Notes under the pieces: model-generated
What the model saw: the letters and a program-made list of their open reading frames with translations, nothing else
What the model was told of the DNA's origin: nothing
Databases searched by the model: none
Part shown: one piece after another, positions 2,113-27,900 of the stretch
Position numbering within the stretch: position 1 is the stretch's first letter
Layout of the letters: each line of letters begins with the position of its first letter
Made by a program: the position numbers and the translations under genes
NCBI GenBank assembly: GCA_964396845.1
Contig: CAYNGH010000002.1
Coordinates: forward strand, 17,760-81,759
DNA: 64,000 nucleotides
Direction: 5' to 3'
DNA from: an uncultured bacterium
Lineage (GTDB): Bacteria > Vulcanimicrobiota > JAJTBE01 > CAYNGH01

Positions 2113-2127
2113 TCACCAACTGCAGAA

Positions 2128-2559: not shown

Positions 2560-2560
2560 C

Positions 2561-3329: not shown

Positions 3330-3665
3330 CTGCTCACCCTCTAATCGGCATACCTGCTGGAGTTACTGGTTTTCCACTGCTGTCGTTATTTACAGAGTCA
3401 ACCATGGATCCTTTGTGTTAAATTGACCAGATAAGTCAAACCAATTGTTAATACTATGGCCTGTAGTCCAATAACAATCGAATACAGATCAATTTATCCC
3501 GAAATACCCTGTGTTGACACTTAAACCTAAAGGATTAGGAAAATCATACTAAAGTATTATTTAATCAAATTGGTTTTGGGCGAAGAACAGGTCTGCCGGT
3601 GTTATTGGAGGAGTTGTGAAGGATGCAGAAGAAAGATAAAAAAAACCGGGAAGGTTATTGACACA

Positions 3666-7312: not shown

Positions 7313-7750
7313 CTATTGAATTTTTCCCCGGAAGGTCTTTGATATGACCTTCTTTATCATCAAGGCAGCATCTATAGGCTTAAAGGGCTTCACGATAAAA
7401 TACTTGGCCCCGTTGACAATGGCTTCCTTGACCTTGTCCTGATAACCCAGGGAGCTTATCATGATGATTGTGGCATTGGGATCGATGGAAACAAGGTGTT
7501 TGACTGCTTCAACCCCGGTCATGTTGGGCATCACAATATCCAAAGTCACAATGTCGGGACGTGTTTTCTTATAAACCTCAATGGCCTGAAGGCCGTCTTC
7601 TGCTTCTCCCACCACCTCGCCCTTCATCAGTCGAACAACAATCTTCAGACTCCGCCGGATAAATTCAGAGTCATCCACAACCATGAATCGAAAAGGGGAG
7701 CCATCCTTCTTGAATATCTGCGCCTCGCTGTTAGAGGTATCAATAGTCAT
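7313..7750 (-). CDS. cheY: CheY-like single-domain response regulator
   Basis: 145 aa receiver domain (MVVDDSEFIRRSL..., DIVTLDIVMPNMTGVEAV..., conserved K in FIVKPF); last gene of the che operon. Confidence 0.8.
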   Translation of the reverse strand: MTIDTSNSEAQIFKKDGSPFRFMVVDDSEFIRRSLKIVVRLMKGEVVGEAEDGLQAIEVYKKTRPDIVTLDIVMPNMTGVEAVKHLVSIDPNATIIMISSLGYQDKVKEAIVNGAKYFIVKPFKPIDAALMIKKVISKTFRGKIQ

Positions 7751-7768
7751 TTCAACAATCTCCTCTCA

Positions 7769-8275
7769 TCAGTTTGCCTTTATTTTAAGAGCAATGTTCA
7801 CATTCAGATCCCCGTGGGGTGTGCTCAAGGGGATAATTATAGTATCAAGGGTCGAGTCGGTGGTCTGCATATCCTTACCGCATAAAAGCACCGGGGGAGT
7901 GATGTTGAACTTGCTTCCGCCGTCATTCAGGGTGGTTATGGCCTTGCCCACGATGATGTTGGCCAGTTCGTTGATGGTTGCCTTTGCAAGGCTGTTGAAG
8001 GAATCCAGCTCCTCATAATTCATGGCTCCGGCAATAGTCCTGGCAGATTCTTCGGACATATCCAGGATAAATCTCCCCTCAACCTCCCCGATAAGGCCGA
8101 TGATGACAGCCACTCCATTCATGGGAACCGGCGATTTCTTCATCACCGGCTTTCCCGGCGTTATAGGGCCTTCAAGCATCTCCTTGAGAACATCATAAGC
8201 GCCCTGGGCAAAGGGCTTGGCATATTTTTTTACCATTTGCATTCTCCCTTCATACAGTTTCCAGAATACCGGCAT
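7769..8275 (-). CDS. cheX: CheC/CheX-family chemotaxis phosphatase (CheX-like)
   Basis: 168 aa; has the CheC/CheX consensus E-x-x-N-I-x-x-G (INELANIIVGKA); size and single motif fit CheX. Alternative start at the second Met (8242) would reduce the overlap with the upstream gene. Confidence 0.65.
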   Translation of the reverse strand: MPVFWKLYEGRMQMVKKYAKPFAQGAYDVLKEMLEGPITPGKPVMKKSPVPMNGVAVIIGLIGEVEGRFILDMSEESARTIAGAMNYEELDSFNSLAKATINELANIIVGKAITTLNDGGSKFNITPPVLLCGKDMQTTDSTLDTIIIPLSTPHGDLNVNIALKIKAN

Positions 8276-10121
8276 TAGACTTGAAGAAGGACAGAGGATT
8301 GATCACCAGCACTACCCTGCCATCTCCCATAACTGTAGCGCCGATGACATAATCAGTGTCGAAGAAGAGATCGTCAAGCTTTTTTACCAGAACCTTGTCT
8401 TCTCCCAGAACGCCATCTACAAGGATTGCCGCGTACCTGTCACTGTCGGATATTATCACCGACATCCGTCCCGTTTCATCCCCATCAACGGGGTCAGATT
8501 CCATCATATCACCCTTCAGGCCCACCTCCATCAGAGTCACAACTCTGTCGGCATAACAGATCACTTTTTGTCTGTTCACAGTCTTGACCTGTCGGGATTT
8601 TAGTTTCAGAATCTTTTCGATGCAGGCCACCGGAACGGCAAATATGTTATCTCCCTTTTTAAAATAGATAACTTCAACCCTGGATGAATCGATGGGAACC
8701 TGAAAACTGCAGAGTCCCCGGTTTTGATTATTATGATACACATTCAGCCGGCCACTGATGGAATTGAGGATATTGTTCACATGATCTATTCCCTTGAAGC
8801 TGAATTTCTCATCATCGCATATTAGGGTAATTATAATATCAGAATCCCGGTATTGAGATAAAATCTTTATATTCAGCGATTCTTTTCCTGATGACAACCT
8901 CTGAATGATATCGGCGACAATATTATCCAGAACAATCTCAATGGCAACCGCCAGTTTTTTCCACATTTCAAGATCAATCTCAATGTCTGTTTCTTCTATA
9001 TTCAGTTTCACATCGGTATTGTGCTTCCGGGACAGGTCCCTGGCCAGCCTGTTGAAGCGGGCCAGTTCCTTGTTCAGTGACACCTTCCTTATGCTTATGA
9101 CTTTTTTTTCCAGCAAAAGGGTGAGTTTATCCATATTTCGAGAAAGCAGATTCAGTTTCTTTATAACAGGATGATATGGATTTGAACGGCTAATCTTGTC
9201 GATCAGGTTAATAAAATGAGATTTTCCCACAAACATTTCTTCAACCAGGCTCATCATCTCGTCAATATTGTGGATGGGAATCCTTACGAAGAAGTTTTCT
9301 TCTTCGCTTCTTTCTGGTTTCTCCGACATTGGTCTTTCTGTCGGGGCTTCATTGACATCAACGGCAGGCCCTATGGGTCTGTTTTCCTGTTTTCCTCGGC
9401 TTTCCTGAATGACAATGCCAATCTCTGTCATCATGGGAATTTCTGTAAGCTCCAGAACAGTATCAATATTTTCCCGTGGATCAAAAAGAATTAGGGTAAA
9501 GAAATCCACTTCCTCGATGGCAGGATCCTCTGGCGAGGGTTCAACCCAGGCCACATCACCAATCTCCTCAAGATTGGACACGACAAGAAATGCGCTGGAT
9601 GACTTCATCAGGCAATCAGAGTCAAAAGGCACCTTGATAACCAGAACGCTTCTGCCTTCTTCCATTCCTTTTCGTGCAGTTTCTTCAATATTGCGGGGCA
9701 TCGTCAGAGCTGTCGCTTCACAGCTTTGTCCTGTCTTTCCCGCCGGCGACTCTTTGAGGTTTTTCAGTAGTCCTGAATAATTTTTTGGCAATGGGCTGTT
9801 GGAAATTTCTGCGTGGGAGAGGGCTTTCAGGCAATCGGTAGCTTCAAAGAACAAATTGATTTGTTGAGAATCGCATTTTATTTTACCATTGCGTATCTGG
9901 TCAAGACGATCCTCCAGGGCATGGGCCAGCATATTGGTGGCATCCAGATTCATCATTCCCGCGGATCCCTTTAAGGTGTGCACCGGTCGAAATATTGAAT
10001 TTATTACCGCAGTGCTTGATGGATCTTTTTCAAGGATCAAGAGGTTGGAGTCGATGGCATCAAACAGCTCTTCGACCTCATCCTGGAAAGTCTGCATCAG
10101 CTCCATCATGTATGAGTCCAT
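8250..10121 (-). CDS. CheA-like protein with intact Hpt (P1) domain, dimerisation (P3)-like region, degenerate ATPase (P4)-like region and CheW-like P5
   Basis: P1 motif VHTLKGSAGMM with the phosphorylatable His. A P3-like segment (FVRIPIHNIDEMMSLVEEMFVGKSHF). Where N/G1/G2 boxes are expected the sequence reads IVLDNIVADII / ICDDEKFSF with no GxGxG. C-terminal CheW-like domain (IFAVPVACIEKI..., GDGRVVLVINP). Confidence 0.75.
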   Translation of the reverse strand: MDSYMMELMQTFQDEVEELFDAIDSNLLILEKDPSSTAVINSIFRPVHTLKGSAGMMNLDATNMLAHALEDRLDQIRNGKIKCDSQQINLFFEATDCLKALSHAEISNSPLPKNYSGLLKNLKESPAGKTGQSCEATALTMPRNIEETARKGMEEGRSVLVIKVPFDSDCLMKSSSAFLVVSNLEEIGDVAWVEPSPEDPAIEEVDFFTLILFDPRENIDTVLELTEIPMMTEIGIVIQESRGKQENRPIGPAVDVNEAPTERPMSEKPERSEEENFFVRIPIHNIDEMMSLVEEMFVGKSHFINLIDKISRSNPYHPVIKKLNLLSRNMDKLTLLLEKKVISIRKVSLNKELARFNRLARDLSRKHNTDVKLNIEETDIEIDLEMWKKLAVAIEIVLDNIVADIIQRLSSGKESLNIKILSQYRDSDIIITLICDDEKFSFKGIDHVNNILNSISGRLNVYHNNQNRGLCSFQVPIDSSRVEVIYFKKGDNIFAVPVACIEKILKLKSRQVKTVNRQKVICYADRVVTLMEVGLKGDMMESDPVDGDETGRMSVIISDSDRYAAILVDGVLGEDKVLVKKLDDLFFDTDYVIGATVMGDGRVVLVINPLSFFKSNAGILETV

Positions 10122-10231: not shown

Positions 10232-12187
10232 TCATGATCCTGCGGATTTTACCATGTCCTGAAGATTTATAACCAGAACTACGCTTCCGTCGCCCTGAAT
10301 ACAAGCACCGGCAATTTCTCTGATATTTCTCAAATAATTACCTATGGTCTTGATGGCAATCTTCTGTTTGCCAACAATTTCATCAAAACCCACCGCCATT
10401 TTTCTGTTGAACCCATTTACTACCGCCACAAGAAACGTGCCATCTTCATGGTTTTCCTGGGGACTGATTTCCATCACATCACAAAGCTGTCTGAAGGGGA
10501 TTATGCTTCCGTTGTATGTAATAACCCTCTTGTGGAGTATCGGTTTTAGCTGTTCCTTTCTGATTTTCATGATTCTTTGAATTCCGTCGGTGGGTATGGC
10601 AAACATCTCACTGCCGGCCCGGACAATCAATGTATCAACCATCGAAAGGGAAAGAGGAAGTCGAATGCTGAAGGTTGTGCCTCTTCCCTTTTCTGTGTTG
10701 ATTTTTATGGTTCCGCCATGTTTTTTAATGCTGGTGCGAACTACATCCATTCCAACACCCCTGCCGGAAATTTCCGTAACTCGTTCTGCAGTGCTGAAGC
10801 CGGGCATAAATATGTAGTCGAGGATTTCCTGTTTTGACATGAACTGAGCCTTCTCCATGGACACAAGCCCTTTTTCCACGGCCTTGTTCCGAATAACATT
10901 GTGATCAATACCCCTGCCATTGTCTTCAATCTCAATCACCACTGAGTTGACATCGTTAAATGCCTTGAGCCATACGCTTCCAGCGGGGTTCTTGCCCTTT
11001 CTTCTTCTTTCATCAGGATAATCGACTCCGTGATCCACGGCGTTTCTGATAAGATGAACCAGGGGATCCTTCAGGCTTTCAAGAACAACCCGGTCAATTT
11101 CTGTGCTTTCTCCGATGATCCTCACGTTTATCTGTTTATCCTGTTCTGATGCCAGAGTTTCGATAACTTTTCTAAACTGCCGGAACAGTGATCTTATGGG
11201 CATCATTCGTAATGATAACAGCTGGTTGTAAAACTGTTCCGTCAGCTTTTCAAAGAGTATTGCCAATCCGTTCATTTCCTTGCCATATGCCGTCAGCATG
11301 CGATCCTGGGTAATCTCCTGCTTCAAGTTCAATATCTTCATTTTAAGGGTAATCATTTCCCCGATGCTGTTCATCAAGCCATCAACTTTTTTTATGTTCA
11401 CCTTCATATTTGACTGAAGTGGAGAATCGCCGATTTTACCCCTGCCATTGTCATTGCGATATTTCTCGCCATTGGTGCTCTCCTGGGCGGAAGAATCATC
11501 CCACTGATTCACAAACTCCCTGATTTCCCAAATCAATGTTTTTATTTCCTCAATTATTGATGTTATACCATGTCCATTCTCTCCTGCAATGATATCCTCA
11601 AGGTTGTTTTCGATCTTCTCTGCAGTCAGATTCAGACGTTCATGTCCGATGAAAAGTGTAGCTCCCTTAATGCCTTTCATGGCGCGCAATATATTGGCAA
11701 CCACGATTATATCCGATGAAGGAGTGAACATGGGAAGATATTCTTGAACTGTTTTAATATGTTGTTCGGCAACTTCCTGAAACAACTCCATCTGGCTTTT
11801 CGACTCATCCCTGCCTGGAATTTTGGCACCTGCCAAGTTGTCCTCCGCCGATTCTCTGGAAAGATTGTCGATTTTCTGTTTCAAGACAGCAATTGACATG
11901 ATCAGCTTGTCATACAGGCTCAATCCCTTGTCCTGGGTAGATTTTTTCATTTCAAGAACCAGCTCTCTGACCTGATCAATCTCTGTCATCAAGCCATCCC
12001 GTCCCAACATGAAAGCACCTTCATAAATACTCCCTAAAACCATGGAAAGCTCTTCTAACAACTTCTTATCCGATGGATCCCGGTTGAGCATTTTAATTAA
12101 AACATTGATCTCATCAACATGCCCCATGGACTCGTCCATAAAATCCTTGAGTATTTCCAGTTGTAATTTTCTTTGAAATTTAATCAT
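10232..12187 (-). CDS. cheA: CheA histidine kinase with complete catalytic (P4) and CheW-like (P5) domains but two Hpt-like domains lacking the phospho-accepting His
   Basis: N box HLIRNAVDHG, G1 IEDNGRGID, G2 GRGVGMDVV and a CheW-like C-terminus are present. The Hpt-like segments read LGSIYEGAFMLG and RAMKGIKGATLFIG, aligning to AAHSIKGGAGTFG with His replaced by Gly and Lys. Confidence 0.85.
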   Translation of the reverse strand: MIKFQRKLQLEILKDFMDESMGHVDEINVLIKMLNRDPSDKKLLEELSMVLGSIYEGAFMLGRDGLMTEIDQVRELVLEMKKSTQDKGLSLYDKLIMSIAVLKQKIDNLSRESAEDNLAGAKIPGRDESKSQMELFQEVAEQHIKTVQEYLPMFTPSSDIIVVANILRAMKGIKGATLFIGHERLNLTAEKIENNLEDIIAGENGHGITSIIEEIKTLIWEIREFVNQWDDSSAQESTNGEKYRNDNGRGKIGDSPLQSNMKVNIKKVDGLMNSIGEMITLKMKILNLKQEITQDRMLTAYGKEMNGLAILFEKLTEQFYNQLLSLRMMPIRSLFRQFRKVIETLASEQDKQINVRIIGESTEIDRVVLESLKDPLVHLIRNAVDHGVDYPDERRRKGKNPAGSVWLKAFNDVNSVVIEIEDNGRGIDHNVIRNKAVEKGLVSMEKAQFMSKQEILDYIFMPGFSTAERVTEISGRGVGMDVVRTSIKKHGGTIKINTEKGRGTTFSIRLPLSLSMVDTLIVRAGSEMFAIPTDGIQRIMKIRKEQLKPILHKRVITYNGSIIPFRQLCDVMEISPQENHEDGTFLVAVVNGFNRKMAVGFDEIVGKQKIAIKTIGNYLRNIREIAGACIQGDGSVVLVINLQDMVKSAGS

Positions 12188-12582
12188 TATGAAGCCTTTC
12201 TACCTCTGCTACCAGAAATCAACATCTCAATATATGCAAGCAGAGAATCAGGATTTGGAGGTTTTACCAAGTAAAGATCCGCTCCAAGACGGATGCCTTT
12301 CCGTTGATCTTCTTCATTGGCCTCGGTTGTAAGTATAATGATTGGCAAATACTGATAGGCCTTCTCTTTCCTGATTGATTTTATCAGTCTGTAGCCGTCC
12401 ATTTTTGGCATATTTATATCAGTAATCACAAGATCATAATTACTGCTGTAGATTTTTTCAAGTGCCGACAACCCATCATTGGCAGTGTCAACCTCATAAT
12501 TATTCAGCTTCAGGATATATGCCAGGATATCCCTGATTGTCCTGGAGTCATCCACCACGAGAATTGTTGCCATCAAACACAC
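12187..12582 (-). CDS. cheY: CheY-like response regulator
   Basis: 131 aa receiver domain (ILVVDDSRTIRDIL, DLVITDINMPKMDGY, YLVKP); 1-nt overlap with the downstream cheA start. Confidence 0.8.
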   Translation of the reverse strand: MCLMATILVVDDSRTIRDILAYILKLNNYEVDTANDGLSALEKIYSSNYDLVITDINMPKMDGYRLIKSIRKEKAYQYLPIIILTTEANEEDQRKGIRLGADLYLVKPPNPDSLLAYIEMLISGSRGRKAS

Positions 12583-12611: not shown

Positions 12612-13439
12612 TTATTGTTTCTGATAAATAATTCCGTTGCTAAAACGGCAAATTTTGAATGCTGTGCTAATTCTGCTCATAGACTCGGAATGTCCCAGAA
12701 AAATATGACCCTCGCTTCTGAGGCTGTTGTAAAGATGCCCCACCACCTGTCTGCGGGCTTTCTGGTCAAAGTAAATCAGAACATTTCTGCAAAAGACAAT
12801 ATCAATATTTCTAATATTTGCAGCCTGCTGGCTATCCATCAGGTTCAGATAAAAGAAACGAACCAGCTTCTTCAATCTGGGATCAACCTCATATGTGCCA
12901 TTGTTTCCAATGAAATATTTGGAAAGATAGTAGCTGTGGACTTCCTTGAGAGCCCTGGCAGAATACTTGCCCTTCCTTGCAGTATCAAGGACCTGATGAT
13001 TGATGTCACTGGCCAGAACCTGAATGTTCCAACCATCGGTGTCCGGGAGGTTCTCCAGTATATTAATGGCTATGGAATAAGGTTCTTCTCCGGTGGAACA
13101 AGCTGCGCTCCATATTTTGAGGGTCTTGCTGTTCTGTTGCTTTTTTTCCAGAATCAGCCTCGGCAATAACTCTTCTCCCAATATCTTCATCTGTGCAATG
13201 TTTCGGAAGAAGTATGTTTCATTTGTTGTTATTATTTCAATAAGCCTGTTGACCTCATTTCCCCGCATGTCAAGACGGAGAAGGCGGTAATAATCCTTAA
13301 GGGTTTCACAGTTTAATTCTTCCATTCGACGGGCCAGTCGTCGGCCCAGCATATACTTCTTGCTGGGGGAGAAGAATATGCCGGTCTTGTCATAAATAAA
13401 ATCCCGAAACAATCTGAAGTCATCCGGATTGAGATTCAT
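12612..13439 (-). CDS. cheR: Chemotaxis protein methyltransferase CheR
   Basis: 275 aa; CheR N-terminal helical domain plus SAM-dependent MTase motifs (KIWSAACSTGEEPYSIAI, VLASDIN..., IVFCRNVLIYFD). Confidence 0.9.
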   Translation of the reverse strand: MNLNPDDFRLFRDFIYDKTGIFFSPSKKYMLGRRLARRMEELNCETLKDYYRLLRLDMRGNEVNRLIEIITTNETYFFRNIAQMKILGEELLPRLILEKKQQNSKTLKIWSAACSTGEEPYSIAINILENLPDTDGWNIQVLASDINHQVLDTARKGKYSARALKEVHSYYLSKYFIGNNGTYEVDPRLKKLVRFFYLNLMDSQQAANIRNIDIVFCRNVLIYFDQKARRQVVGHLYNSLRSEGHIFLGHSESMSRISTAFKICRFSNGIIYQKQ

Positions 13440-15376
13440 TCTGCATCACCATCCTCTCCCAGGACGCCAAGAATCATCCGGGCGGTGCTTTGAACCTCGT
13501 AATCCCTGGAATATAGCATTCTTCTGATGGCTTCCATACCCTGACTTCCACCGATTCTCTGGAGTCCTTCCAGGGCGGCCACCTGAACAATTGATGAAGA
13601 TTCAACATCAAGACACTGGTTGAGCACTTCGACACAACGGGGATCCTTCAAATTACCAATGCCCCGGACGGTTTCATATCTCACCCAGACATCATTATCA
13701 CCCAGCAATGGAACCAGGTAATCCAGTGCATCGGGAGGCGCCAGCCGACACAGAACATTAATCGCCTTCATCCTGACTTCGTTGTGTTCGTCATTCAAAA
13801 CAGGTATTAAATATTCCACAGGCAGGGGGCCCGGCATTCTTGAGAGAACTGCTATGGCATATTTTCGAACCTGCCAGTTGCTGTCATTTAATGCGATGAT
13901 GATGTCATCAAGATATTCCGCCGAAAGAAAAGCATGGGTCAATCCATAGGCTGCGGTGGATCGGACTTTTTCATCCAAATCATGAAGAAGCGACACAAGC
14001 TTCCGGTTCACGTGGCTTCCGCCAATTTTAGAGAGGGCTTCAGCAGCTTCAAATCTCACGTCTTCATACTCATCCCGCATTAATTCAAACAGATCCTCCA
14101 GGGCCTCACAAATTTTCATATCACCCATGGCCTTTGCCGATGCCCTTCGGACGTGCCCCAGAGAATCATGCAGTAGCGGAATAAGACGGCCTTTAATCGA
14201 CTCAGCACCGATTTCTGTCAGGGCATTCAATGCCTCCAGCCTGATATCGTCATCCTGGGAATCCAGAACAGACAGGAGAAAGGGGATTGGCAACTTTGAC
14301 GAGGATTGACCAAGAACCCTTATGAAATACCCGGGATTCTTGGTTTTACTAAAGTTGAACTGTTTTAAAATCGACCTGACACACTCTTCACCAGGCTTAT
14401 TAAAAATCTCCCGGATTATCCCAGGAAGCTCATCTCTGGACATGGCAAAACTGACCACGGGGTCAATCAGCTCATCTGGCCCCATCAATGACAGAATGTA
14501 TGCCGACATGCCACTGATGTCCCGATCCTTGCTTTCCAGGTTTGACAAGATGATTGAGATGTTGTTGTGCAGGTGATCCAGGCTGTCCCGGTCAAATTCT
14601 AACTGAAACCGGCGACATATATTTCCCACTGCAAAGATGATGTAGGAATCCACCAGGCCCTTTTCCTTGCCCAGCCTAACTATCAGCAGTTTTACAGTGT
14701 CCATGTTCCCTATTCGAGAAAGCTTTTTTAGCACAGCCAGGGACACTGCAGCACTTCCTTCATCAAGAACATCAAGTAGAACGGGAATAATGCCGGGATC
14801 ATCAATATTTGACAAAGCTTCGATTGCAAAAATTTTCACCCACGGGTCTTTTTCCTGTTGAATCTTCTTAATCACCGGCTGGACTTTCCGGGGATCATTT
14901 ATTTTACTCAGGCTTTCCAGAGCTGCTGTGCACACATTAATATCCCCATCTTTCAGAAGCGGAATCAAATGTTCAACACTGTTTCCACTGCCGATATCCC
15001 CGAGAATATTTATTGCAAACTTCCTGACATCACTGTCCCTGTCATAAATTAAAGGAGTAACCCCAGGCAGGGCAGATTCTCCAATCTGACCCAGGATTGC
15101 AATGGCATCGTTTCTCAACCTGACATCACTGTCACGAAGGTATTCCACAAGAAGAGCAATAACCTGAGGATCCTCTGTCGCCGACAATGTATCAATTAAT
15201 ACCTCCCGTGAGCCTCCCCGGACATGACGAAGTTGATCAACAAGTTTTGAATATTCTTCTTGTTTAGTTTCACCAACAGGCTTATTATCAAACACCTGTG
15301 AACTTTTCCGGTCATGATAGTCCGATTCCCGTATGACTTTTTCTGTTTTTGTACCTTTCAACCTCAACACTTCCAA
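13436..15376 (-). CDS. HEAT-repeat (PBS-lyase-type) protein embedded in the che operon
   Basis: 646 aa made almost entirely of ~30-aa repeats of the form D-x-D/N-x-x-VR-x-x-A-x-x-AL-x-x-IG; stop codon overlaps the cheR ATG (ATGA). Confidence 0.7.
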   Translation of the reverse strand: MEVLRLKGTKTEKVIRESDYHDRKSSQVFDNKPVGETKQEEYSKLVDQLRHVRGGSREVLIDTLSATEDPQVIALLVEYLRDSDVRLRNDAIAILGQIGESALPGVTPLIYDRDSDVRKFAINILGDIGSGNSVEHLIPLLKDGDINVCTAALESLSKINDPRKVQPVIKKIQQEKDPWVKIFAIEALSNIDDPGIIPVLLDVLDEGSAAVSLAVLKKLSRIGNMDTVKLLIVRLGKEKGLVDSYIIFAVGNICRRFQLEFDRDSLDHLHNNISIILSNLESKDRDISGMSAYILSLMGPDELIDPVVSFAMSRDELPGIIREIFNKPGEECVRSILKQFNFSKTKNPGYFIRVLGQSSSKLPIPFLLSVLDSQDDDIRLEALNALTEIGAESIKGRLIPLLHDSLGHVRRASAKAMGDMKICEALEDLFELMRDEYEDVRFEAAEALSKIGGSHVNRKLVSLLHDLDEKVRSTAAYGLTHAFLSAEYLDDIIIALNDSNWQVRKYAIAVLSRMPGPLPVEYLIPVLNDEHNEVRMKAINVLCRLAPPDALDYLVPLLGDNDVWVRYETVRGIGNLKDPRCVEVLNQCLDVESSSIVQVAALEGLQRIGGSQGMEAIRRMLYSRDYEVQSTARMILGVLGEDGDAE

Positions 15377-15393: not shown

Positions 15394-16458
15394 TTAAATT
15401 TTTAGCAATGACACAAGAATTTCTGTAACTTGACTGTCGGGAACAATTATGTCCGCAAGACCTGATTCAATAACAGACCTGGGCATTCCATAAACAGTGC
15501 ATGTGCTGGAATCCTCAGCTATGGTAAGACCTCCTGATTTGCGGATTTCCCGCATACCCCGGGTGCCGTCACTGCCCATTCCAGTCATTATGATTCCCAC
15601 TGTATCGCTTCCATACACCTTTGCCACCGATTCCATCATGATGTCCACCGAAGGCCGATAAATCACATCTTCAGGAAATCGACTCAGGCGGATCACCACT
15701 CCCTTGGAAAGTGATGTGGTAACTGCTGTCAGATGTTGATCCCCCGGGGCAATATAACACACGGAACGTCTGACTCTCTCGCCATTTCTGGCTTCCTTCA
15801 CATTTATCCCACAGATGCTGTCAAGCCTGTTGGCCAGGGAGCTGGTGAACCCCGCAGGCATATGCTGGGTCAAAAATATCGGCGCTGGAAAATCAGCAGG
15901 AATCATCGGAAGAATCTCAAGAAGCTTTCTGGGCCCTCCGGTAGATATGCCAAGAGCAATGGCAGGGTTGATAAAATGCCTTTTGAATGCATTCATGTTC
16001 CCAGTTTCGGCAACAGGCTCTCTATAAATCGTTACACTCCCTGATTTCAAAGGCTTCTTCCTTCTTCTCAAGGCAGCAGAACGAATCTTGATAATCAGAT
16101 CCCTTCGAAAATTATCAACATCCTGTCGATTCGACATAAAAGGCTTGGTGATAAAATCAGAATGCTCATCAAGTGATGTCTTCAAGTCAAGCTCTGCTTC
16201 CTGCCTTGACATTGAACCGATGAAAATCACCGGAATCCTTAACACCTGCCGAAGCTGTTCGATAATACTCCTTCCGTTGTTCCTGAAAAGCTCCATATCC
16301 AAAGTCATCACATCAGGATTGAGGGACGCAGCCTTTTCAAGAGCCTCATCGCCGTCCCCTGCAAGACCTGCAACAACAATCCGGCGATCGCTTTCCAGAA
16401 GCCTCTTGATCCGTTTGCGAATCATTTTGGATTCATCAACAACAACAACAGATATCAT
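15394..16458 (-). CDS. cheB: Chemotaxis response regulator protein-glutamate methylesterase CheB
   Basis: 354 aa; N-terminal receiver, C-terminal methylesterase with ALGISTGGP, TGMGSDG and AEDSSTCTVYGMP motifs. Confidence 0.9.
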   Translation of the reverse strand: MISVVVVDESKMIRKRIKRLLESDRRIVVAGLAGDGDEALEKAASLNPDVMTLDMELFRNNGRSIIEQLRQVLRIPVIFIGSMSRQEAELDLKTSLDEHSDFITKPFMSNRQDVDNFRRDLIIKIRSAALRRRKKPLKSGSVTIYREPVAETGNMNAFKRHFINPAIALGISTGGPRKLLEILPMIPADFPAPIFLTQHMPAGFTSSLANRLDSICGINVKEARNGERVRRSVCYIAPGDQHLTAVTTSLSKGVVIRLSRFPEDVIYRPSVDIMMESVAKVYGSDTVGIIMTGMGSDGTRGMREIRKSGGLTIAEDSSTCTVYGMPRSVIESGLADIIVPDSQVTEILVSLLKI

Positions 16459-16507: not shown

Positions 16508-18460
16508 TCAACTGGCCTTCCCTTCATCGGCACTGTCTGGCTCCAGACATGTCAGCTCATCATCCAGACAGGAAACACCGCCGAGATTTGTTCCACTCAA
16601 GTCTTCAACAGTATTCAAATCCTCCGGGGACTGTTGGATATTATCCCCTCCCGAAGAATCATCAATCTCACCAATCTTATCAATCTCATCAATCTCATCA
16701 TCGTCATCAGAACCCATTTGAGCCAGCAACTGCTCCTGCAATGCTCTCAACTGCTCCTCCTCAGACAGCTCGATAGTGGAAAAATCTGTCTTCCCTTCAT
16801 CTGATCCAGATAAAGAATCATCACGGGAATCTGAATCCACCACAGGCAATAAATCATCAGCAACCTTCTCTTCCAAGCCGACTTCCCATAAATCATCCTC
16901 GGCACCAGGGGCATCGGAATTCTTATGGACAACATCAATTGCTGAATCATCATCAATAACATCCTGGGGCGATTCCTGTTGCAGGTTTAATATGCCGGCC
17001 ACATTTAAAATTATAACAAACCGCTGACCGCCATTCATTTTTCCAATTCCTTCGATAAACGAAGCATCGATTTCTGAGATTATCTCCGGGGCAGATTCAA
17101 TGCTGTCGGCGGTCAACTGAATCACTTCAGAAACCGAGTCAACTATCAAGCCGGAAACCCGGTTCTGACAGGTCACCACAACAATGCGATCGGAACCGCT
17201 GGGTTCTTTCCAATCAAGCCCGAATCTGCTGCGAAGATCAATCACCGGCAGAACATCTCCCCGCAGGTTGACCACACCCCGGACATAATCTGGTGAGCCT
17301 GGCACTGCAGTTATATCAGTCAGGCGGATTATTTCCCGGACATTTCTGATATCAACACCAAATTCTTCATTGCCAAGCCTTAAGCTGACCATCTGCCTGA
17401 TTTCCAATGAACCTCTCTCCTTTGCCGGATGCCGGTTGGCCCCGACTGCATCCGCTGATTTTTCATCAATCCCGGAAATATCCGAACTGCAGGTGATACT
17501 ATCTGAATCAAGAATCAAAACAAGCCGGTTTCCGCCCTCAAGCTTTCCTATTCCCTGAAGCCTGCCATCCAGGGCAACAGTTTCCGGCGGATCCTCAATC
17601 CGATCCCTGGGAATACTGACCACCTCATTGACCATATCCACCAGAACCCCCGACAGAACTCTTTCGCCATTCACATCCCGGCGAAGGATGAGAATCCGGG
17701 ATCGCTTGTCTATGGGCGACTCTGTCATGCAAAAATAACTGCAAAGATTAATAACAGGCATCACCTTTCCCCGGATGCTTATGATACCGGAGATAAATCC
17801 CGGAGCCTCAGGAACTCTGGTAATCCGGGGAATCTTGATAATCTCCTCCACCTTGTTGATATCAACGGCATACTCCTCGGCCCCCAGCTGAAAACTGACC
17901 ATCTGAACATCATGATTCAATCCTGCCGACTCCGAATCGTCAACGCCGTCAATCCCTGCCGGATAATCAAAAGAAGAATCCATATCATCGGAAACATCAT
18001 CTATTCTGGTTATTGTATCGAGATTTAATATGGAAATTAATCGCTGGCCGGATTTGTGTTTGCAAATCCCCTTCAGACTGCCGGAGCCTGACTGGTATAG
18101 TGACGGGGGAGGCAGTTCGACTTCCCCGGAATTAATCCTGAGGACTTCGGAAACCGAATCCACAACCAGGCCCACTGGGGTATCGTCATAACTTGTCACC
18201 ACAACCCGGTTGGAAGGCCCATGGTGAATCTCCTCCATGTTCAGGCGTTTCCTGGTGTCAATGATTGGCAGGATCTGTCCCCGGAGATTGACAACCCCCT
18301 CCAGATAATGAGGAGCCCTGGGCACCATAGTTATGCCCGGCAACTTGATAATCTCCTGAACATTTCCAATCTCAATGCCGTATTCTTCTCCACCAAGACG
18401 AAATGTTACAAGCTGTTCAATGTTTCTATTTTCTGACAGAGCCGGGGACATATGAACCAT
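16508..18460 (-). CDS. Triple CheW-domain coupling protein with acidic C-terminal tail
   Basis: 650 aa; three successive CheW-like domains (each containing LRG-x-xxPVIDLR-like and GxxVDxVxEV motifs) followed by a D/E-rich tail (DDDDEIDEIDKIGEIDD...). Confidence 0.8.
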   Translation of the reverse strand: MVHMSPALSENRNIEQLVTFRLGGEEYGIEIGNVQEIIKLPGITMVPRAPHYLEGVVNLRGQILPIIDTRKRLNMEEIHHGPSNRVVVTSYDDTPVGLVVDSVSEVLRINSGEVELPPPSLYQSGSGSLKGICKHKSGQRLISILNLDTITRIDDVSDDMDSSFDYPAGIDGVDDSESAGLNHDVQMVSFQLGAEEYAVDINKVEEIIKIPRITRVPEAPGFISGIISIRGKVMPVINLCSYFCMTESPIDKRSRILILRRDVNGERVLSGVLVDMVNEVVSIPRDRIEDPPETVALDGRLQGIGKLEGGNRLVLILDSDSITCSSDISGIDEKSADAVGANRHPAKERGSLEIRQMVSLRLGNEEFGVDIRNVREIIRLTDITAVPGSPDYVRGVVNLRGDVLPVIDLRSRFGLDWKEPSGSDRIVVVTCQNRVSGLIVDSVSEVIQLTADSIESAPEIISEIDASFIEGIGKMNGGQRFVIILNVAGILNLQQESPQDVIDDDSAIDVVHKNSDAPGAEDDLWEVGLEEKVADDLLPVVDSDSRDDSLSGSDEGKTDFSTIELSEEEQLRALQEQLLAQMGSDDDDEIDEIDKIGEIDDSSGGDNIQQSPEDLNTVEDLSGTNLGGVSCLDDELTCLEPDSADEGKAS

Positions 18461-18479: not shown

Positions 18480-20429
18480 TCAGATGGCCTGAAGCTCTTC
18501 TGCCATAAAAGAAATCTCCTCGGCTGCCCTGGCCAGCTCTTCGATTCCCAGGGCCTGTTCCTCCGAGGCCAGAGCCACTTTTGAACCGGCAGCCGATGCC
18601 TGCTCTGACTCGGACTTTACTTCCCTGGCTGCTTCCACTCCCTGGCTGGTGTCTTCCAGCTGGTCATCAAAAAGCATTATAAGCTTGTCAACTATCTCTA
18701 TGGCCTCACTGGCAGCGTTTAGTATATTTTCCGCTTCACTGTGAATCTCATCACCCCGGCGGGCTTCCACCTCCGCCTGATTTCCCGCCTTTTCCACATC
18801 ATCTCCCACCACGGCAATCTGATCCCGGATATTTCTCACCAGATCCTTGATTTTCTCTGCAGAATGGGAAGATTCATTGGCCAGGTTCTTTACATCAGCT
18901 GCCACCACGGAAAAGCCCTTGCCATATTCACCGGCCCGGGCTGCCTCAATGGCACCGTTGAGGGCCAGAAGGTTGGTCTGAATGGCAATGTTGACAATGG
19001 CATCAACAATCTTGCTGATTTTCTTGGCCTTGTTTCCAAGGGCCACCAGTTCCTTGGCAGAACTCATGTTGGAAGCTGCAGCCTCGTTGATACCTTCCAC
19101 CACAACAGCAATGCGACTCCTGGCTTCAGAATATTCCTCCACCAGCTCATCAAAGCCGTTTCGAATCCCCTGGGATACATCTTTGACCATCTCAGTGCTC
19201 ACCTGGGCTTCCAGGGCTGCCTGTCGCAAATTTTCTGCCCCTTCGGCAGCCTGACCGGTGCCATGGGCAATTTCGCTTATGGCGTTCTTAATCTCCTGGG
19301 CAGCGCTGTTGGATTCCTGAATAGTGGCGGATATTTCCTCCGCGGCGGCTCCCACCTCGTTAGCTGTTTCCAGGGTAGATTCATTCTCATGAAGCTCATC
19401 GGCAATAGCTGAAAGCTCGCTGGTGGCAATCTTGATTTCCTCCAGGGCACGGCTCTGCTCCTTGATGGAATTCACCGACTGATTGGTGGCCGCGGCGGTC
19501 TGTTCTGAGGCTGCTGCAATCTGCTCTGCGCTGTTCAAAAAGTTTTCCAGAGTCACCAACTGTTCCGTTGCCAGTCTTCCCACCTGTTGGGCCTGATCCA
19601 CAATATCCCTGGCAATCTGACCGCAACGTTCCATGGTTTCCCCCACCTCCCGGGCCCTGACAACAACCCCGGAGGCAGAATTCCCGGCGCCTTCTATTTT
19701 TTCTGATACAATCCGTATATCTTCCTGCACTGACCGGGCAACCTGGCTGATCTCCCTGGCAGCGTTTTCGGCATTTTCCGCCAGGTTTCGAACCTCGTCA
19801 GCCACCACCGCAAAACCACGGCCATGCTCCCCGGCCCGGGCAGCCTCGATGGCAGCATTCAAGGCTAAAAGGTTGGTCTGATCTGCAATTTCCACCACCG
19901 ACTGGACTATACTGCCTATCTCATCTCCCTGGAGAATCAGGTCCGCAGCGCTTCTCACCGCTTCAACATTCACCTCGGCAAAGGAATTGATCCCCTCGAT
20001 GGCAGTGTTGATCTTGTCCAGGGAGTTCCGCAAAAGAGATGCCAGGCTGTCAACATTTCGCACTACATTCTCCGAATCTCTGGATGCCTGTTTGGACCTG
20101 CCGTCGGCCTTCTGAGCGATTTTCTTTGCCTTTTCCGCAGTGGCACTGGCAACCTCAACATTGTGGGCCAGCTTCTCTCCCGAGGCAATTATCTCATTGG
20201 ATGACGCGGCAACCCTCTCCACTCCCGATGCAAGCTGTGATGTGGCATCGGCAAGCTGCTGGGCTACCTGCTGGCGCATTTGTGCTTCTTTTTGTTTCTT
20301 CATGGCCAGCTTTCGAAGGGTATCCTTTCGATCAACCTTGTCAATAAACGACATTCTCGGCACCGATGCAACCGATGCAACACCCCTGGAACCGCCATTC
20401 CCTTCTCTTTTACCCAGTACACGAGCCAT
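18480..20429 (-). CDS. Soluble methyl-accepting chemotaxis protein with two tandem signalling (MA) domains
   Basis: 649 aa with no obvious TM segment. The highly conserved MCP tip motif appears twice ([35 protein letters not shown] and [36 protein letters not shown]), each flanked by heptad-rich coiled coil. Confidence 0.85.
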
Positions 20430-20697
20430 AAGGTTACCTCCATCATGTTTCTATAAGGTAAATCGGCCTGAATGGACAATCTGTTTAGAATAATAATCAA
20501 AAATCAGACTAAAGTATTATGACATAATCGGTATTATTTAGTCATAGAGGGCACATGCTCAACAAAAAGAAATATCCCCTGATAAACAGGAGAATCAAAA
20601 CATACCAGTGCTGGATCAGTCAGGATATTACTGCGGTTGCCCTTCCGGGACAGGGTTTTTCATGCCTCCGGAAACACTGCCATCCACAGGGCCTGGT

Positions 20698-21996
20698 TCA
20701 GTTTTTCCCAGAAAGAAAGATATCCTCAAAACCCGAGATCGCTTCCAACTCATCGGGGGAGGCTTTCTTTCTGAACAGGTTCAGATCATTCCTGAAGCTC
20801 AGAGGATCCCCAAGATAATAATGAACCAGTCCCCTGGTGGCCAACAGCAGATGATTATCGGGAGTTTTTTTGATGGCGGTATTTATCAGGTTCAGAGCTT
20901 TTTCTCTGTTATTCAGCAGGGAGTACATGACTGCGTAATCTGCCATCTGCTCTGATGTTTCAGGGGGTTTTGGGTTAGCCTCCTGCCAGATTAGAGCCTC
21001 GGCCCGGGCCTGTTCTTCCCTGCCTATTTCTGCCAGAAAGCTGACATGACTCAGGATGAACCCGGTGTTTTCCGGGTTGCATTCACGGGCAGTCCGATAA
21101 TATTTATCTGCGACATCAAATTCTCTTCTGTCCCGGTGGATGGCTCCCAGGATGTTATTCAGGTTTCCCCTCATTTCTGGGCCGATGTCGTCAACCTGTT
21201 TCAACTGAGGATCAATTTTCAGGTAATTCTTATATTCACGCCAGGCCTTTTCTGTCTGGTCGGTGTCCATGTATATTTCCATCAGCCTCAGGTAGCCATG
21301 GGGCTTGAAAAAACCCTGCTCAACCACCATCTTTGCAGTTTTTTCCGCCATGGGGGGGTTTGTGTGGAACAAGCTGTAAGTGCTCACCAGCAGAATTTTT
21401 GATTTCTCTTCTGGTGTAGGATTCAGGGCCTCAGCTCGTCGGAGCGTTTCCAGGGACTGGTCATATTTTCCCACTTCAGAAAAAGCCCTGGCCAGCTCAA
21501 CGGTGGTGTGAACGCTCAGGGGATCCGCCCGGTTTGCCTTGATCCTGTCGGAAAGACATGCCTCCAGATCCCCGGTGGCCCGGTAAGCGCTGGCCCGGTA
21601 AAGCAATCCGTTGACATTATCCGGCTGAACCTCAAGGAGTTCATTGGAGTGTTTAAAAACCTGCTCCCACTCCTCATGGATAGCAAAAACCCTGATTATA
21701 CCTTCCCTGGCTTCGATGTTTTCCGGGTCAATTCTTAAAACCTGCCGGTAAAAATCCATGGCTTCGTCAGGCTTTCTGTCCTGAGCAAGACATTGTTCTG
21801 CTTCATGAAGCAGACGATTCACCTGGGCTCTTGCTTCATCAGATAACTGGGTGTCAGATGACAATGAATGACTGCCGAGAGTACCAGACCTGTCACATGC
21901 AGGCAATATCATCAATAAAAGACACAGGAAAACAAAAGATGCGATTAAACTTTTTTTATTGTCAGACCCTCGAAGGGATCCCCCACAAACTGGCAT
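20698..21996 (-). CDS. TPR-repeat lipoprotein
   Basis: 432 aa; signal peptide with lipobox (LLMILPAC), multiple TPR-like repeats. Confidence 0.7.
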   Translation of the reverse strand: MPVCGGSLRGSDNKKSLIASFVFLCLLLMILPACDRSGTLGSHSLSSDTQLSDEARAQVNRLLHEAEQCLAQDRKPDEAMDFYRQVLRIDPENIEAREGIIRVFAIHEEWEQVFKHSNELLEVQPDNVNGLLYRASAYRATGDLEACLSDRIKANRADPLSVHTTVELARAFSEVGKYDQSLETLRRAEALNPTPEEKSKILLVSTYSLFHTNPPMAEKTAKMVVEQGFFKPHGYLRLMEIYMDTDQTEKAWREYKNYLKIDPQLKQVDDIGPEMRGNLNNILGAIHRDRREFDVADKYYRTARECNPENTGFILSHVSFLAEIGREEQARAEALIWQEANPKPPETSEQMADYAVMYSLLNNREKALNLINTAIKKTPDNHLLLATRGLVHYYLGDPLSFRNDLNLFRKKASPDELEAISGFEDIFLSGKN

Positions 21997-22002
21997 ATCA
22001 CC

Positions 22003-23307
22003 CTACTGCTGAGGTTCCTTGACCCTGGATTTGAGCATCGGCAAGATTTTTTCAGTATATTTCTTTTCCTCATTGGACGCCATGACCATGAATCTTTGAA
22101 AATCCCTATCATAGGCTTGTTTGTCACCCATGTAATAATATATCAGGGCCCGGTTTCCATAATTGGCAGCCTCATCAGGCTCCCGGTTTATTGCAGTATT
22201 CATGAGCTGGATGGCTTTCTGATCCTGCCCCAGCATCATATAAATAATCGCCTGGTTGCCAAAATCATCTGTATCCATCGGCGGATTCGGGTTCATATCC
22301 AGCCAGGTCTGGGCATATTTCTTCGCTTCGTCAGGGTAGCCCATTGATGCCAGAAGCCCTATATAGTTGACCAGGGCCACCTGGTTGTCGGGAAATATTT
22401 TAAGAGATTTTTCATAATACTCTTTTGCGGTGTCCAGCTCCATCCTGATCCGATGGATTGTCCCGAGTTTGTCATATATCTTTGCCCGGAGCTTTTCTCC
22501 CAGGAAATCGATCAATTTTTCATCCGGGTCAGATTCCTTGTACTTTTCATACATCTCCATGGCTTTTTCAATGAGTTCTTCATTGTCTTCGCTTTCTTCG
22601 CCCAGGTCCGTGTAAATATCCATCAGGAGAATATATGCATGGGTTGGACTCTCATCATATTCCAGGGACTGTTTGGCATACTTTTCCGCCTCCCTGAGAT
22701 CCCCCTTGTTGATTGATGCCATGGTAAGCTGAACATAGACAGAATATTTCTGTTCAAAGGTTTCCGCCAAATCCATAGTCTTATTGAGGAGATGAATACC
22801 CTCATCATATTTTTGAGCTTCAATCAGAGAAATAGCCATGTCAAAATTTGTGCGGAATGTGAAGGGAGAATTCTTTGTGGCCCGGCGGGTGTCGGCAAGG
22901 GCCATGTCTGCATTGCCCATCATCAGATGAACCCTGGATCTGACCAGAAGACCGTTCACATGATCCGGATCCACCGTCAGGAGTCTATTCAACACCACCA
23001 GAGCCTCTTCCCATTTTTTCAGGCTCACCAGGCATTCTGCCTTGCCGTTGAGAGCTGAAATATTGGTGTCATCAATCTCCAGTACTTCGTCATACATTTT
23101 TATGGCCTCTTCAAACCTTCCATCCTCATAGAGCCTTTCCCCCTCGGCGATGAGCCTGTCGCTTCTCACCCGCATCGATTCGGAAATGGTTTCAGCAGGA
23201 CTGGGACTCTCGGTGGGAGTCACCTCCGGTTTCGGCGTGCACCCCATCAGAACCGTCAATATATATACTAATATGACCGCTGGTAAAACATAAAAAAACT
23301 TTTTCAT
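22003..23307 (-). CDS. TPR-repeat lipoprotein (paralog of the downstream gene)
   Basis: ORF to 23337; preferred start MKKFFYVLPAVILVYILTVLMGC (lipobox). Repeat architecture and several blocks (DPDHVNGLL..., LGTIHRIRMELDTAKEYYEKS...) parallel the 20698..21996 protein. Confidence 0.7.
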   Translation of the reverse strand: MKKFFYVLPAVILVYILTVLMGCTPKPEVTPTESPSPAETISESMRVRSDRLIAEGERLYEDGRFEEAIKMYDEVLEIDDTNISALNGKAECLVSLKKWEEALVVLNRLLTVDPDHVNGLLVRSRVHLMMGNADMALADTRRATKNSPFTFRTNFDMAISLIEAQKYDEGIHLLNKTMDLAETFEQKYSVYVQLTMASINKGDLREAEKYAKQSLEYDESPTHAYILLMDIYTDLGEESEDNEELIEKAMEMYEKYKESDPDEKLIDFLGEKLRAKIYDKLGTIHRIRMELDTAKEYYEKSLKIFPDNQVALVNYIGLLASMGYPDEAKKYAQTWLDMNPNPPMDTDDFGNQAIIYMMLGQDQKAIQLMNTAINREPDEAANYGNRALIYYYMGDKQAYDRDFQRFMVMASNEEKKYTEKILPMLKSRVKEPQQ

Positions 23308-23530
23308 CCCCACTCCTCCATAAGGCAATAATTTCACAGCACCTCTGATTATAACAAAAAATCCACAGAATGGGAAGGTTTTTCTGAATCAATGCATCAA
23401 GACACCATGAAAGCAGAGAAAGACGGTCTAAAATGAAAATGCCTCTTCTTGCAGGGATAATTGTTTATAAAATTAATAATAATCATATAATTAATCAGGA
23501 TTGCGATTTTAACTGAGAAGGCGGTATATT

Positions 23531-27839: not shown

Positions 27840-27900
27840 AACAAGGACCCCGGCCCCGTAAGGTCACCCTATGCAGGGCCGGTCTGTCAAGTTGTTCGAA

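Follow-up and report, generated by a model that had tools for sequence, protein, structure and literature searches.

CheW3, a triple-CheW adaptor with a long acidic tail, and its probable F9-class chemosensory operon in an Eremiobacterota/Vulcanimicrobiota-like lineage

One gene in the 64,000-nucleotide stretch of bacterial DNA analyzed here (the window) encodes three CheW-like domains in a single protein that ends in a polyacidic tail, and it lies next to a two-tipped receptor and a kinase whose function is divided over two proteins. This raises the question whether the gene belongs to a chemosensory system of a known class or, as proposed in an earlier note on this DNA, implies an unusual array lattice, and what the tail could contribute. 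As a whole, the evidence is best explained by the gene being the cheW3 of an F9-class chemosensory system, which we consider highly probable. CheW3 is an ordinary member of this class, apart from a lineage-specific acidic tail with one conserved helix.

Domain architecture of CheW3

The cheW3 open reading frame (16508..18460; this and all other coordinates given for the gene and its operon refer to the minus strand) encodes a triple-CheW adaptor, identified by Pfam, AF2, Foldseek and a database match, of 650 amino acids when counted from the first ATG. The identical database protein (P0001) has 647 amino acids and starts at M4 (nt 18451). Because a weak Shine-Dalgarno sequence (AAGG) is located 9 nt upstream of M4, this is probably the true start, and the protein probably comprises 647 residues; the numbering used below is that of the 650-residue frame.

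The protein contains three matches to the Pfam CheW family (PF01584, E = 2.3e-107). When the segments were scanned separately against this model (length 138, cutoff 23.5 bits), domain 1 (residues 16–151; 18008..18415) scored 125 bits over model positions 1–134, domain 2 (residues 186–322; 17495..17905) 116 bits over positions 1–133, and domain 3 (residues 356–493; 16982..17395) 136 bits over positions 1–136. By this coverage, no FrzB-like internal deletion was found in any of the three domains. AF2 models each of them with a pLDDT >90 and a repeating strand pattern, and a Foldseek comparison with the CheW and P5 structures of the PDB returned a probability of 1.0 (TM 0.79–0.89, rmsd 1.6–2.8 Å). 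Since all three regions match the CheW profile, the AF2 fold and Foldseek, none of them lacks the CheW fold, and the earlier reading of three CheW domains in one protein stands. The domains are separated by linkers that are disordered according to AF2, an acidic linker 1 (residues 152–185; 17906..18007) and a linker 2 (residues 323–355; 17396..17494). Their extents agree with the family, in which linker 1 measures 31–36 and linker 2 28–33 residues (Clostridium, Eremiobacterota-like and other members).

The core motif that had been ascribed to each domain is present in approximate form: domain 1 reads VPRAPHYLEGVVNLRG, domain 2 reads VPEAPGFISGIISIRG, with SIRG instead of NLRG, and domain 3 reads VPGSPDYVRGVVNLRG, with SP instead of AP. 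Each domain also retains, together with neighbouring glycines, an E/R pair, which we take to be key residues of CheW (E36/R60, E206/R230 and E376/R400). The pairs have a 24-residue spacing and are invariant among 56 homologues; E36/R60 are found at the positions of E38/R62 of E. coli CheW, and E376/R400 align to the same two residues (2ho9).

The probable F9 operon, its CheA pair and its output

The cheW3 gene is positioned directly downstream of a gene for a DosM-like cytoplasmic receptor (18480..20429), which consists of two MCPsignal stretches with hairpin tips at residues 195 and 495 and has no sensory domain. No transmembrane segment was found in this receptor, as its maximum 19-residue hydropathy is just 1.3, and the earlier description of a two-tipped receptor is thus borne out. 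The two-tip geometry is common to five loci, with exactly 154 residues (22 heptads) after tip 2 and tips 300 residues apart; by length only, these values would be compatible with heptad class 44H, to which F9-class receptors belong. On the other side of cheW3 we identified, by their domain matches, genes for a CheB methylesterase (REC and CheB_methylest; 15394..16458), a HEAT-repeat protein of 646 amino acids (13436..15376, also supported by synteny), a CheR methyltransferase (12612..13439) and a CheY-like response regulator (12187..12582). They are followed by two CheA proteins recognized from profile and alignment evidence, CheA-a (10232..12187) and CheA-b (8250..10121), a CheX/CheC-type CheY-P phosphatase (7769..8275) and a second CheY-like response regulator (7313..7750). 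An Rfam scan of the window gave no match, and a scan for promoters and terminators gave consensus-level hints only.

The gene order in the window (DosM, W3, CheB, HEAT, CheR, CheY, CheA-a) is the order DosM-W3-B-.-R-Y-A of the S6 table of PMC9321776, where [DosMW3B.RYA] is given for 72 species. The HEAT-repeat protein takes the position of the dot. Its orthologues occupy the same slot between CheB and CheR in four loci of relatives (L081, L082, L084 and L086), and in L083 the orthologue is found further downstream, directly before CheR. DosM and CheW3 have been described as "unique to this class" (PMC9321776), and the signature published for F9 systems is just this pairing of a trivalent coupler and a two-tipped receptor (PMC9321776; PMC7534058), so the combination is not new. 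In our case CheW3, DosM and the gene order point to F9 membership, and CheA-a matches generic CheA models only.

In V. cholerae, where CheW3 is VC1402 and DosM is VC1403, the F9 receptor array is double-layered and membrane-free; its two baseplates are made of CheW3 and CheA, and DosM staples the layers, inserting one tip per baseplate. Arrays of this kind, so far known from V. cholerae only, also form without CheA, and imaging has shown an ordinary 12-nm hexagonal lattice within a two-baseplate sandwich that lies in the cytoplasm (PMC3964821). The proposed unusual lattice therefore does not hold as a novelty, as the published F9 lattice is standard and the unusual part is the two-baseplate sandwich. 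The system in the window shares with that of V. cholerae the three tandem CheW domains (a likeness of architecture, not of compared sequence), the location of cheW3 directly downstream of a receptor with two signalling domains and no transmembrane segment, and the gene order. CheW3 would presumably also form part of the baseplates of a double-layered array in the cytoplasm. It differs from VC1402 by its acidic disordered tail of ~155 residues with a conserved helix, and the system differs by a complementary two-protein CheA pair in place of one CheA and by the presence of CheX. R. centenum Che2, which is in the F9 list of Mo et al. with the order [DosMW3B.RYA], likewise combines three distinct CheW domains in a single polypeptide, a tripartite CheW (PMC2890560). 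Unlike the system described here, its CheA is reportedly a hybrid that includes a receiver domain, its unnamed genes encode small proteins rather than a 646-residue HEAT protein, and it regulates lateral flagella biosynthesis.

The split kinase claimed for this locus was recovered as a division of functions between CheA-a and CheA-b. CheA-a has an intact P3-P4-P5 region (294 bits to T. maritima CheA P3–P5) in which the N, G1 and G2 boxes are present, and its N-terminus is weakly Hpt-like without the phospho-acceptor histidine, the position being occupied by K in the window and by Q in relatives. CheA-b is compact (623 amino acids) with recognizable P2 and P3, a P5, and an Hpt in which the HTLKGS sequence aligns to H48 of E. 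coli, the conserved Hpt histidine. Its P4 is degenerate, as the equivalents of E. coli residues 421–474 (G1/F/G2) are absent and the N box is missing, and its eight closest homologues (P0247–P0254) likewise have no HATPase_c. By these alignments, CheA-a is the predicted catalytically competent core and CheA-b the predicted carrier of the acceptor histidine and P2, with a dead kinase domain.

By analogy with R. sphaeroides CheA4/CheA3, a split kinase so far called unique to Rhodobacteraceae, the two proteins probably phosphorylate in trans. CheA-a resembles CheA4 in its working P3-P4-P5 and the lack of a phosphorylatable P1, CheA-b resembles CheA3 in its phosphorylatable P1 and P5 around degenerate kinase domains, and in both organisms a single operon of a cytoplasmic array system encodes the two proteins. 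The pairs differ in lineage (Rhodobacteraceae there, Eremiobacterota-like here), in the F9 context with DosM and CheW3, and in the compactness of CheA-b, which at 623 residues retains P2 and P3. Since CheX is encoded separately here, a CheA3-type phosphatase region need not be assumed in CheA-b. Judged from these features, the CheA-a/CheA-b split looks like an origin independent of that in R. sphaeroides.

Output and signal termination would fall to CheX and the two CheY proteins. It may be, although we lean against it, that the system does not steer swimming but regulates flagellum biosynthesis or another process, with CheW3 as the same scaffold. Such an output would be in line with R. centenum Che2, which controls flagella biosynthesis and not taxis (PMC2890560), with V. 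cholerae F9, for which there is no chemotaxis phenotype, and with a receptor that has no sensory domain; the CheX and single-domain CheY proteins at the end of the cluster are, however, typical of motor control. Flagellar basal-body genes adjoin the chemosensory cluster in the window, L084 and L086, which could also argue for a role in swimming, but this adjacency fits both readings.

The acidic tail and its conserved helix

The CheW domains are followed by an acidic, intrinsically disordered C-terminal tail, as judged from composition, AF2 and homologues. The earlier note had recognized this tail but put it at about 110 residues; it is longer, comprising ~155 residues (~494–650; 16511..16981). 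Its net charge is about -41, and the last 150 residues of the protein contain 30 D and 18 E (32%), including DDDDEIDEIDKIGEIDDSSGG at residues 585–605. Among the 45 open reading frames of the window, with a median pI of 6.7, no other strongly acidic tract comes close in size to that of CheW3, and on the basis of this median we rejected a halophilic or otherwise genome-wide composition as the cause of the tail. The polyacidic end that had been pointed out in the sensor kinase (3570/3666–7289) is indeed present (DIFDDDEDEE), but at 10 residues only it is a weak parallel.

The tail is an addition specific to this lineage. A search with the tail only, among 1.84 billion representatives, had the CheW3 protein itself as its sole match, and C-terminal tails in the CheW3 family range from 0 to ~170 residues. 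As most CheW3 proteins have no tail at all, it is dispensable for the core role. Within the tail, residues 562–586 (TIELSEEEQLRALQEQLLAQMGSDD; 16703..16777) form an island with 76% identity to the nearest relative, as opposed to 24–35% in the flanking tail. AF2 predicts a helix at residues 567–582, with a pLDDT of up to ~91, in a tail that is otherwise predicted to be disordered, and the conserved pattern reads ELSEE-QL(R/K)ALQEQLLAQM. The acidity of the tail is kept across the clade even where the sequence diverges.

We propose that the tail would act as a flexible, negatively charged arm reaching out on the outer side of the baseplate, and that its conserved helix (residues 562–586) may dock a partner. 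The leading candidates would be the conserved HEAT-repeat protein and the basic CheR and CheB; the pI of 9.3–9.4 of the latter two is not specific evidence for tail binding. When all operon proteins were scanned for basic segments, no conserved basic partner for the tail was found. The N-terminus of the receptor is basic (+7 over 40 residues) and seemed a promising candidate by analogy with FrzCD, but as this is not conserved in relatives we rejected it as a general tail partner.

It is possible, if somewhat doubtful in our view, that the tail has no specific partner and is a fast-evolving low-complexity appendage, at most a generic entropic or electrostatic bristle; it might, for example, hold ribosomes, the nucleoid or further array sheets away from the baseplate. 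This would be consistent with a tail identity to the closest relative of 24–35%, compared to 81% for domain 3, with the zero sequence relatives among 1.84 billion representatives, with lengths that vary from none in most members to ~170 residues, and with the disorder predicted by AF2. A bare bristle would fit less well with an island of 25 residues that is 76% conserved and predicted to be helical, with an acidic composition that is maintained across the clade despite sequence change, and with a genome that is not generally acidic.

A precedent for appended parts on array adaptors is the CheW-CheR-like fusion of the T. denticola F2 system, in which an extra C-terminal module on a CheW domain decorates the baseplate rings. 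That array is membrane-bound, and the module is a folded CheR-like domain attached to a single CheW; the CheW3 described here instead carries a disordered acidic tail behind three CheW domains.

Array geometry and age of the triplication

In the mechanism that we propose, each CheW3 domain would bind one receptor-dimer tip and contact a neighbouring CheW or CheA-P5 in the six-membered baseplate rings, with P5 partners coming from both CheA-a and CheA-b. With three places of a ring filled by a single CheW3 polypeptide, about half a ring would come ready-linked; the local concentration would rise as a result, and the lattice could nucleate in the absence of a membrane and even of CheA. The AF2 model of the whole protein has a pTM of 0.63 with ~480 of 650 residues ordered, where ~0.2 would be expected for independent domains. 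The relative placement of the three domains is thus confident in the model, and we infer their ring-like packing from the pTM only. The earlier note had suggested that a comparison of the domains with each other and with the P5 domains could predict which interface each occupies. The CheW3 domains are 39–43% identical among themselves, but their identities to the P5 domains of CheA-a and CheA-b are uniformly 16–20% and thus uninformative for the ring interface.

In arrays, each trimer of receptor dimers offers three binding sites for the CheW fold, a number that equals the three domains of CheW3. One CheW3 could accordingly wrap a single trimer of dimers, each domain sitting on one dimer and in a different baseplate ring, rather than take consecutive positions in one ring. 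Linkers of ~32 residues could span the way around a trimer, and CheW domains must fill all sites in the V. cholerae arrays without CheA. We nevertheless regard this arrangement as rather unlikely: the pTM of 0.63 implies a confident, direct packing of the domains, as neighbours in a ring would show but domains held apart by a receptor trimer would not, and when CheA is present, one of the three sites of each trimer is taken up by P5, which would leave one CheW3 domain unpaired.

The search for this architecture in other genomes returned more than 1000 CheW3 homologues across many phyla, and all of the top 120 matches have three CheW domains. In 57 of 60 cases, the nearest neighbour of a domain in another protein was the domain at the same position. 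The triplication is thus ancient, with three differentiated positions. The idea that the three-domain protein is an artefact (a collapsed or duplicated repeat in the assembly, or three fused cheW neighbours) has nothing more than the repetitive architecture in its favor and is practically refuted, because domains that are merely 39–43% identical argue against a recent duplication or misassembly, and because the same three-domain frame with orthologous positions recurs in >100 independent sequences from many phyla and triple CheW proteins are also present in characterised organisms. The CheW fold has also been tandemly duplicated within an array protein in F5-class CheA, with two C-terminal CheW/P5 domains, but there the duplication is in the kinase and not the adaptor, with two copies rather than three.

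A trivalent CheW beside a two-tipped receptor belongs to the textbook picture of F9 systems and leaves existing knowledge unchanged. The structure of F9 systems has been described, but their function is obscure and their output unsettled, and this member extends the class to an Eremiobacterota/Vulcanimicrobiota-like lineage, a placement based on MutS similarity only. The features specific to this lineage are the acidic tail with its helix, the complementary CheA pair and the conserved HEAT protein, whose gene fills an unnamed slot of the F9 operon. The conserved helix in an otherwise freely evolving acidic tail offers a handle on what docks to the baseplate, and the complementarity of the CheA pair suggests that a division of labour in the style of CheA4/CheA3 arose more than once in cytoplasmic arrays. 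It is a speculative reading, and on balance an improbable one, that these systems form a distinct F9 subclass of the Eremiobacterota-like lineage, in which the tail helix recruits a partner and the CheA pair has been independently re-partitioned; the HEAT-repeat protein or the adaptation enzymes would then be the candidates brought to the outer side of the baseplate in the cytoplasm, and CheA-a and CheA-b would form an obligate pair. If true, the pair would represent a second, convergent origin of an arrangement called unique to Rhodobacteraceae.

CheW3 domains and the F9 array

The cheW3 gene (16508–18460, minus strand) encodes an adaptor of 650 aa when read from its first ATG, the length given in the earlier note. 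The identical database protein (P0001) comprises 647 aa and starts at M4; because the sole Shine-Dalgarno-like site for CheW3, AAGG, is found 9 nt 5′ of M4, this is probably the true start. Pfam CheW matched the protein three times (E = 2.3e-107). When residues 16–151, 186–322 and 356–493 were scanned separately, each scored 116–136 bits (cutoff 23.5) and covered the near-complete 138-position model, while the last 150 residues gave no match in the family scan. An AlphaFold2 model built on a 56-sequence alignment contains three β-rich domains (pLDDT > 90), disordered linkers (152–182 and 323–352) and a tail that is disordered save for one helix (567–582). Foldseek matched it to solved CheW and CheA-P5 structures (probability 1.0), and a PDB sequence search returned the same proteins. 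The earlier call of three CheW domains was correct, each region being near full-length and predicted to fold as CheW. The domains are 39–43% identical among themselves and 16–20% identical to both P5 domains of the window, and all retain the Glu/Arg pair at the positions of E. coli CheW E38/R62.

Neither this architecture nor its meaning is new. A 'tripartate CheW' was reported in 2010 for the R. centenum Che2 cluster (PMC2890560). The F9 chemosensory class is marked by an adaptor with 'concatenated triple CheW domains (CheW3)' and by DosM, a cytoplasmic receptor with double signaling domains in tandem (Mo et al., PMC9321776). Of the 72 species in Table S6 of that study, the majority have the gene order [DosMW3B.RYA]; some variants end in YX. 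The che operon of the window, tightly packed on the minus strand, encodes DosM, CheW3, CheB, a HEAT-repeat protein, CheR, CheY, two CheA-like proteins, CheX and a second CheY, and thus reads DosM-W3-B-(HEAT)-R-Y-A-A′-X-Y against the published order. The literature settles the identity of the window protein, which belongs to the F9 CheW3 family.

The receptor noted beside CheW3 is indeed two-tipped: DosM (18480–20429, minus strand, 649 aa) has two MCPsignal stretches by domain matches, with hairpin-tip motifs at aa 195 and aa 495; no hydrophobic segment was found along the protein. In V. cholerae, DosM bridges both baseplates and is essential; arrays form there without CheA (PMC7534058). These arrays have been imaged: their two baseplates are separated by 35 nm and keep the 12-nm hexagonal packing that is universal among chemosensory arrays (PMC3964821); the 'unusual array lattice' of the earlier note was therefore a known structure with a common lattice.

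A word-seeded search (E ≤ 1e-10) found at least 1185 homologues in many phyla. All of the best 120 have three CheW domains, including 6 scored as four-domain through insertions that split one domain. In 57 of 60 cases the nearest relative of a domain in another protein was the domain at the same position; the triplication is thus ancient, with differentiated positions. From Clostridium through the window lineage the linkers are constant at 31–36 and 28–33 aa. DosM geometry is likewise invariant across phyla: at five loci (the window and relatives' loci L081–L084) ~300 residues separate the tips, and the C-terminal arm is always exactly 154 residues (22 heptads) long. Together, these fixed lengths point to a geometric constraint set by the lattice.

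Based on V. cholerae data and the anatomy of CheW3, each domain would bind one receptor-dimer tip and pack against neighboring CheW or P5 domains in six-membered baseplate rings. The pTM of the model is 0.63, near the ordered fraction (~480/650 residues), against the ~0.2 expected if the domains were placed independently; the model thus places the three domains confidently relative to each other, as ring neighbors would be. From this value we favor CheW3 as a pre-linked half-ring. A clamp around one receptor trimer is less favored, since such mutual placement is what is expected of ring neighbors.

The acidic tail

The last 150 residues of CheW3 contain 30 D and 18 E (net charge −41). The D/E-rich disordered tail described previously is thus real, but about 155 aa rather than ~110 aa long. 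The 45 ORFs of the window have a median pI of 6.7, and no other strongly acidic tract among them approaches that of CheW3 in size; this rules out genomic acidic bias as the origin of the tail, which is protein-specific.

In most homologues the chain stops no more than ~10 residues past domain 3; tails of at least 60 aa are present in 26 of 121. In the nearest clade (44–53% identity) the tail is first acidic and then carries a K/S/T-rich basic block. This diblock arrangement was seen in P0002–P0009 and P0011 (example KSKSKSTKSKSTKSKSTTKTKSKTKKTKK) and resembles tails that bind DNA or membranes. The tails of window CheW3 and of its closest relative, from the syntenic locus L086, are acid-only, the basic block having been lost or never present. 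Between these two proteins domain 3 is 81% identical, the tail before residue 562 24%, residues 562–586 (ELSEEEQLRALQEQLLAQMGSDD) 76%, and the tail after 586 35%. As the conserved island coincides with the predicted helix, we read the tail as a disordered acidic arm with one short putative docking helix. A search of 1.84 billion representative proteins with the tail alone detected no relative.

The first ~40 residues of DosM are variable, being basic in the window and in Clostridium bowmanii (L083) and not at the other loci; this N-terminus was rejected as a general partner of the tail for lack of conservation. CheR (pI 9.4) and CheB (pI 9.3) are both basic in the window and are, with the conserved, unexplained HEAT-repeat neighbor, candidates only.

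The CheA pair and neighboring genes

The split kinase proposed earlier is supported by alignment. CheA-a (10232–12187, minus strand) has intact P3-P4-P5 domains with N, G1 and G2 boxes (294 bits against T. maritima CheA), and its Hpt-like N-terminus has K at the acceptor His position (Q in relatives). CheA-b (8250–10121, minus strand) has P2, P3, P5 and the acceptor His, in an HTLKGS motif aligning to E. coli H48; its degenerate P4 lacks ~53 residues spanning G1/F/G2 and the N box. The kinase core would therefore reside in CheA-a and the acceptor in CheA-b, analogous to the division of labor of R. sphaeroides CheA4/CheA3, which was called 'a unique case' in a recent survey (10.1101/2023.09.19.558490) and is described in the literature as unique to Rhodobacteraceae. 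In the table of 72 F9 clusters by Mo et al. (PMC9321776) no cluster is annotated with two adjacent CheA genes, although in many of them CheA precedes unnamed '.' genes. Among homologues of CheA-b, the eight closest (P0247–P0254, 39–62% identity) share the architecture without HATPase_c. They are followed by CheX and CheY, forming with them a three-gene module that is either attached to the F9 cluster (window 7313–10121; L086) or found at a distant site (L085 8001–10805, on the same 7.6-Mb contig as L081, ~200 kb apart).

A HEAT-repeat protein of ~610–646 aa is encoded immediately 5′ of CheR at all loci examined, from C. bowmanii to the window lineage (21–41% identity): window 13436–15376 (minus strand, 646 aa), L081 13101–15020, L082 12952–14871, L083 14585–16444, L084 12994–14823 and L086 2138–4057. 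It fills the CheB-CheR gap, the unnamed '.' of the published F9 order, in the window, L081, L082, L084 and L086; in L083 CheB is separated from the HEAT protein by a CheY and then by a distinct Hpt protein of 486 aa. No description of it was found in the literature searched. After CheA, L083 encodes a ParA/MipZ-like ATPase and another multi-CheW protein (19937–21476); these and the Hpt protein are other ways to elaborate the F9 core.

Directly upstream of the operon are two TPR proteins (20698–23337, minus strand), the first with a strongly acidic 40-aa stretch (aa 225–264); the 268-bp gap contains terminator-like and promoter-like sites, as consensus matches only. A divergent ankyrin-repeat protein follows (23531–25156, plus strand, 541 aa), and ankyrin proteins also flank L082 and L085. 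Three consecutive ORFs at 26838–30630 (minus strand; 333, 363 and 533 aa) had no Pfam match at E ≤ 0.001. By MutS, which shares 61–68% identity with MAG proteins labelled Eremiobacteraeota or Vulcanimicrobiota and with the 7.6-Mb contig encoding the CheW3 relative P0003, the source organism is probably related to that phylum.

Downstream of the operon are FlgB, FlgC and FliF and a cytoplasmic GAFx4-PAS-HisKA-HATPase kinase (3570–7289, plus strand, ~1230 aa), which ends in DIFDDDEDEE as noted, a short acidic run. This kinase is kept in L086 (10232–13915, minus strand), where it is again convergently oriented, with the che operon on one side and flagellar genes on the other. Basal-body genes (FliE/FlgB/FlgC/FliF and others) adjoin the F9-like cluster in three related genomes (window 508–2974, minus strand; L084 1–7760; L086 14310–19272), which suggests a functional tie to the flagellum, in motor control or biogenesis. 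Three lineage-specific features, namely the acidic tail and its conserved helix, the complementary CheA pair and the HEAT neighbor, are more novel than the triple-CheW architecture originally flagged and are of modest specialist interest.
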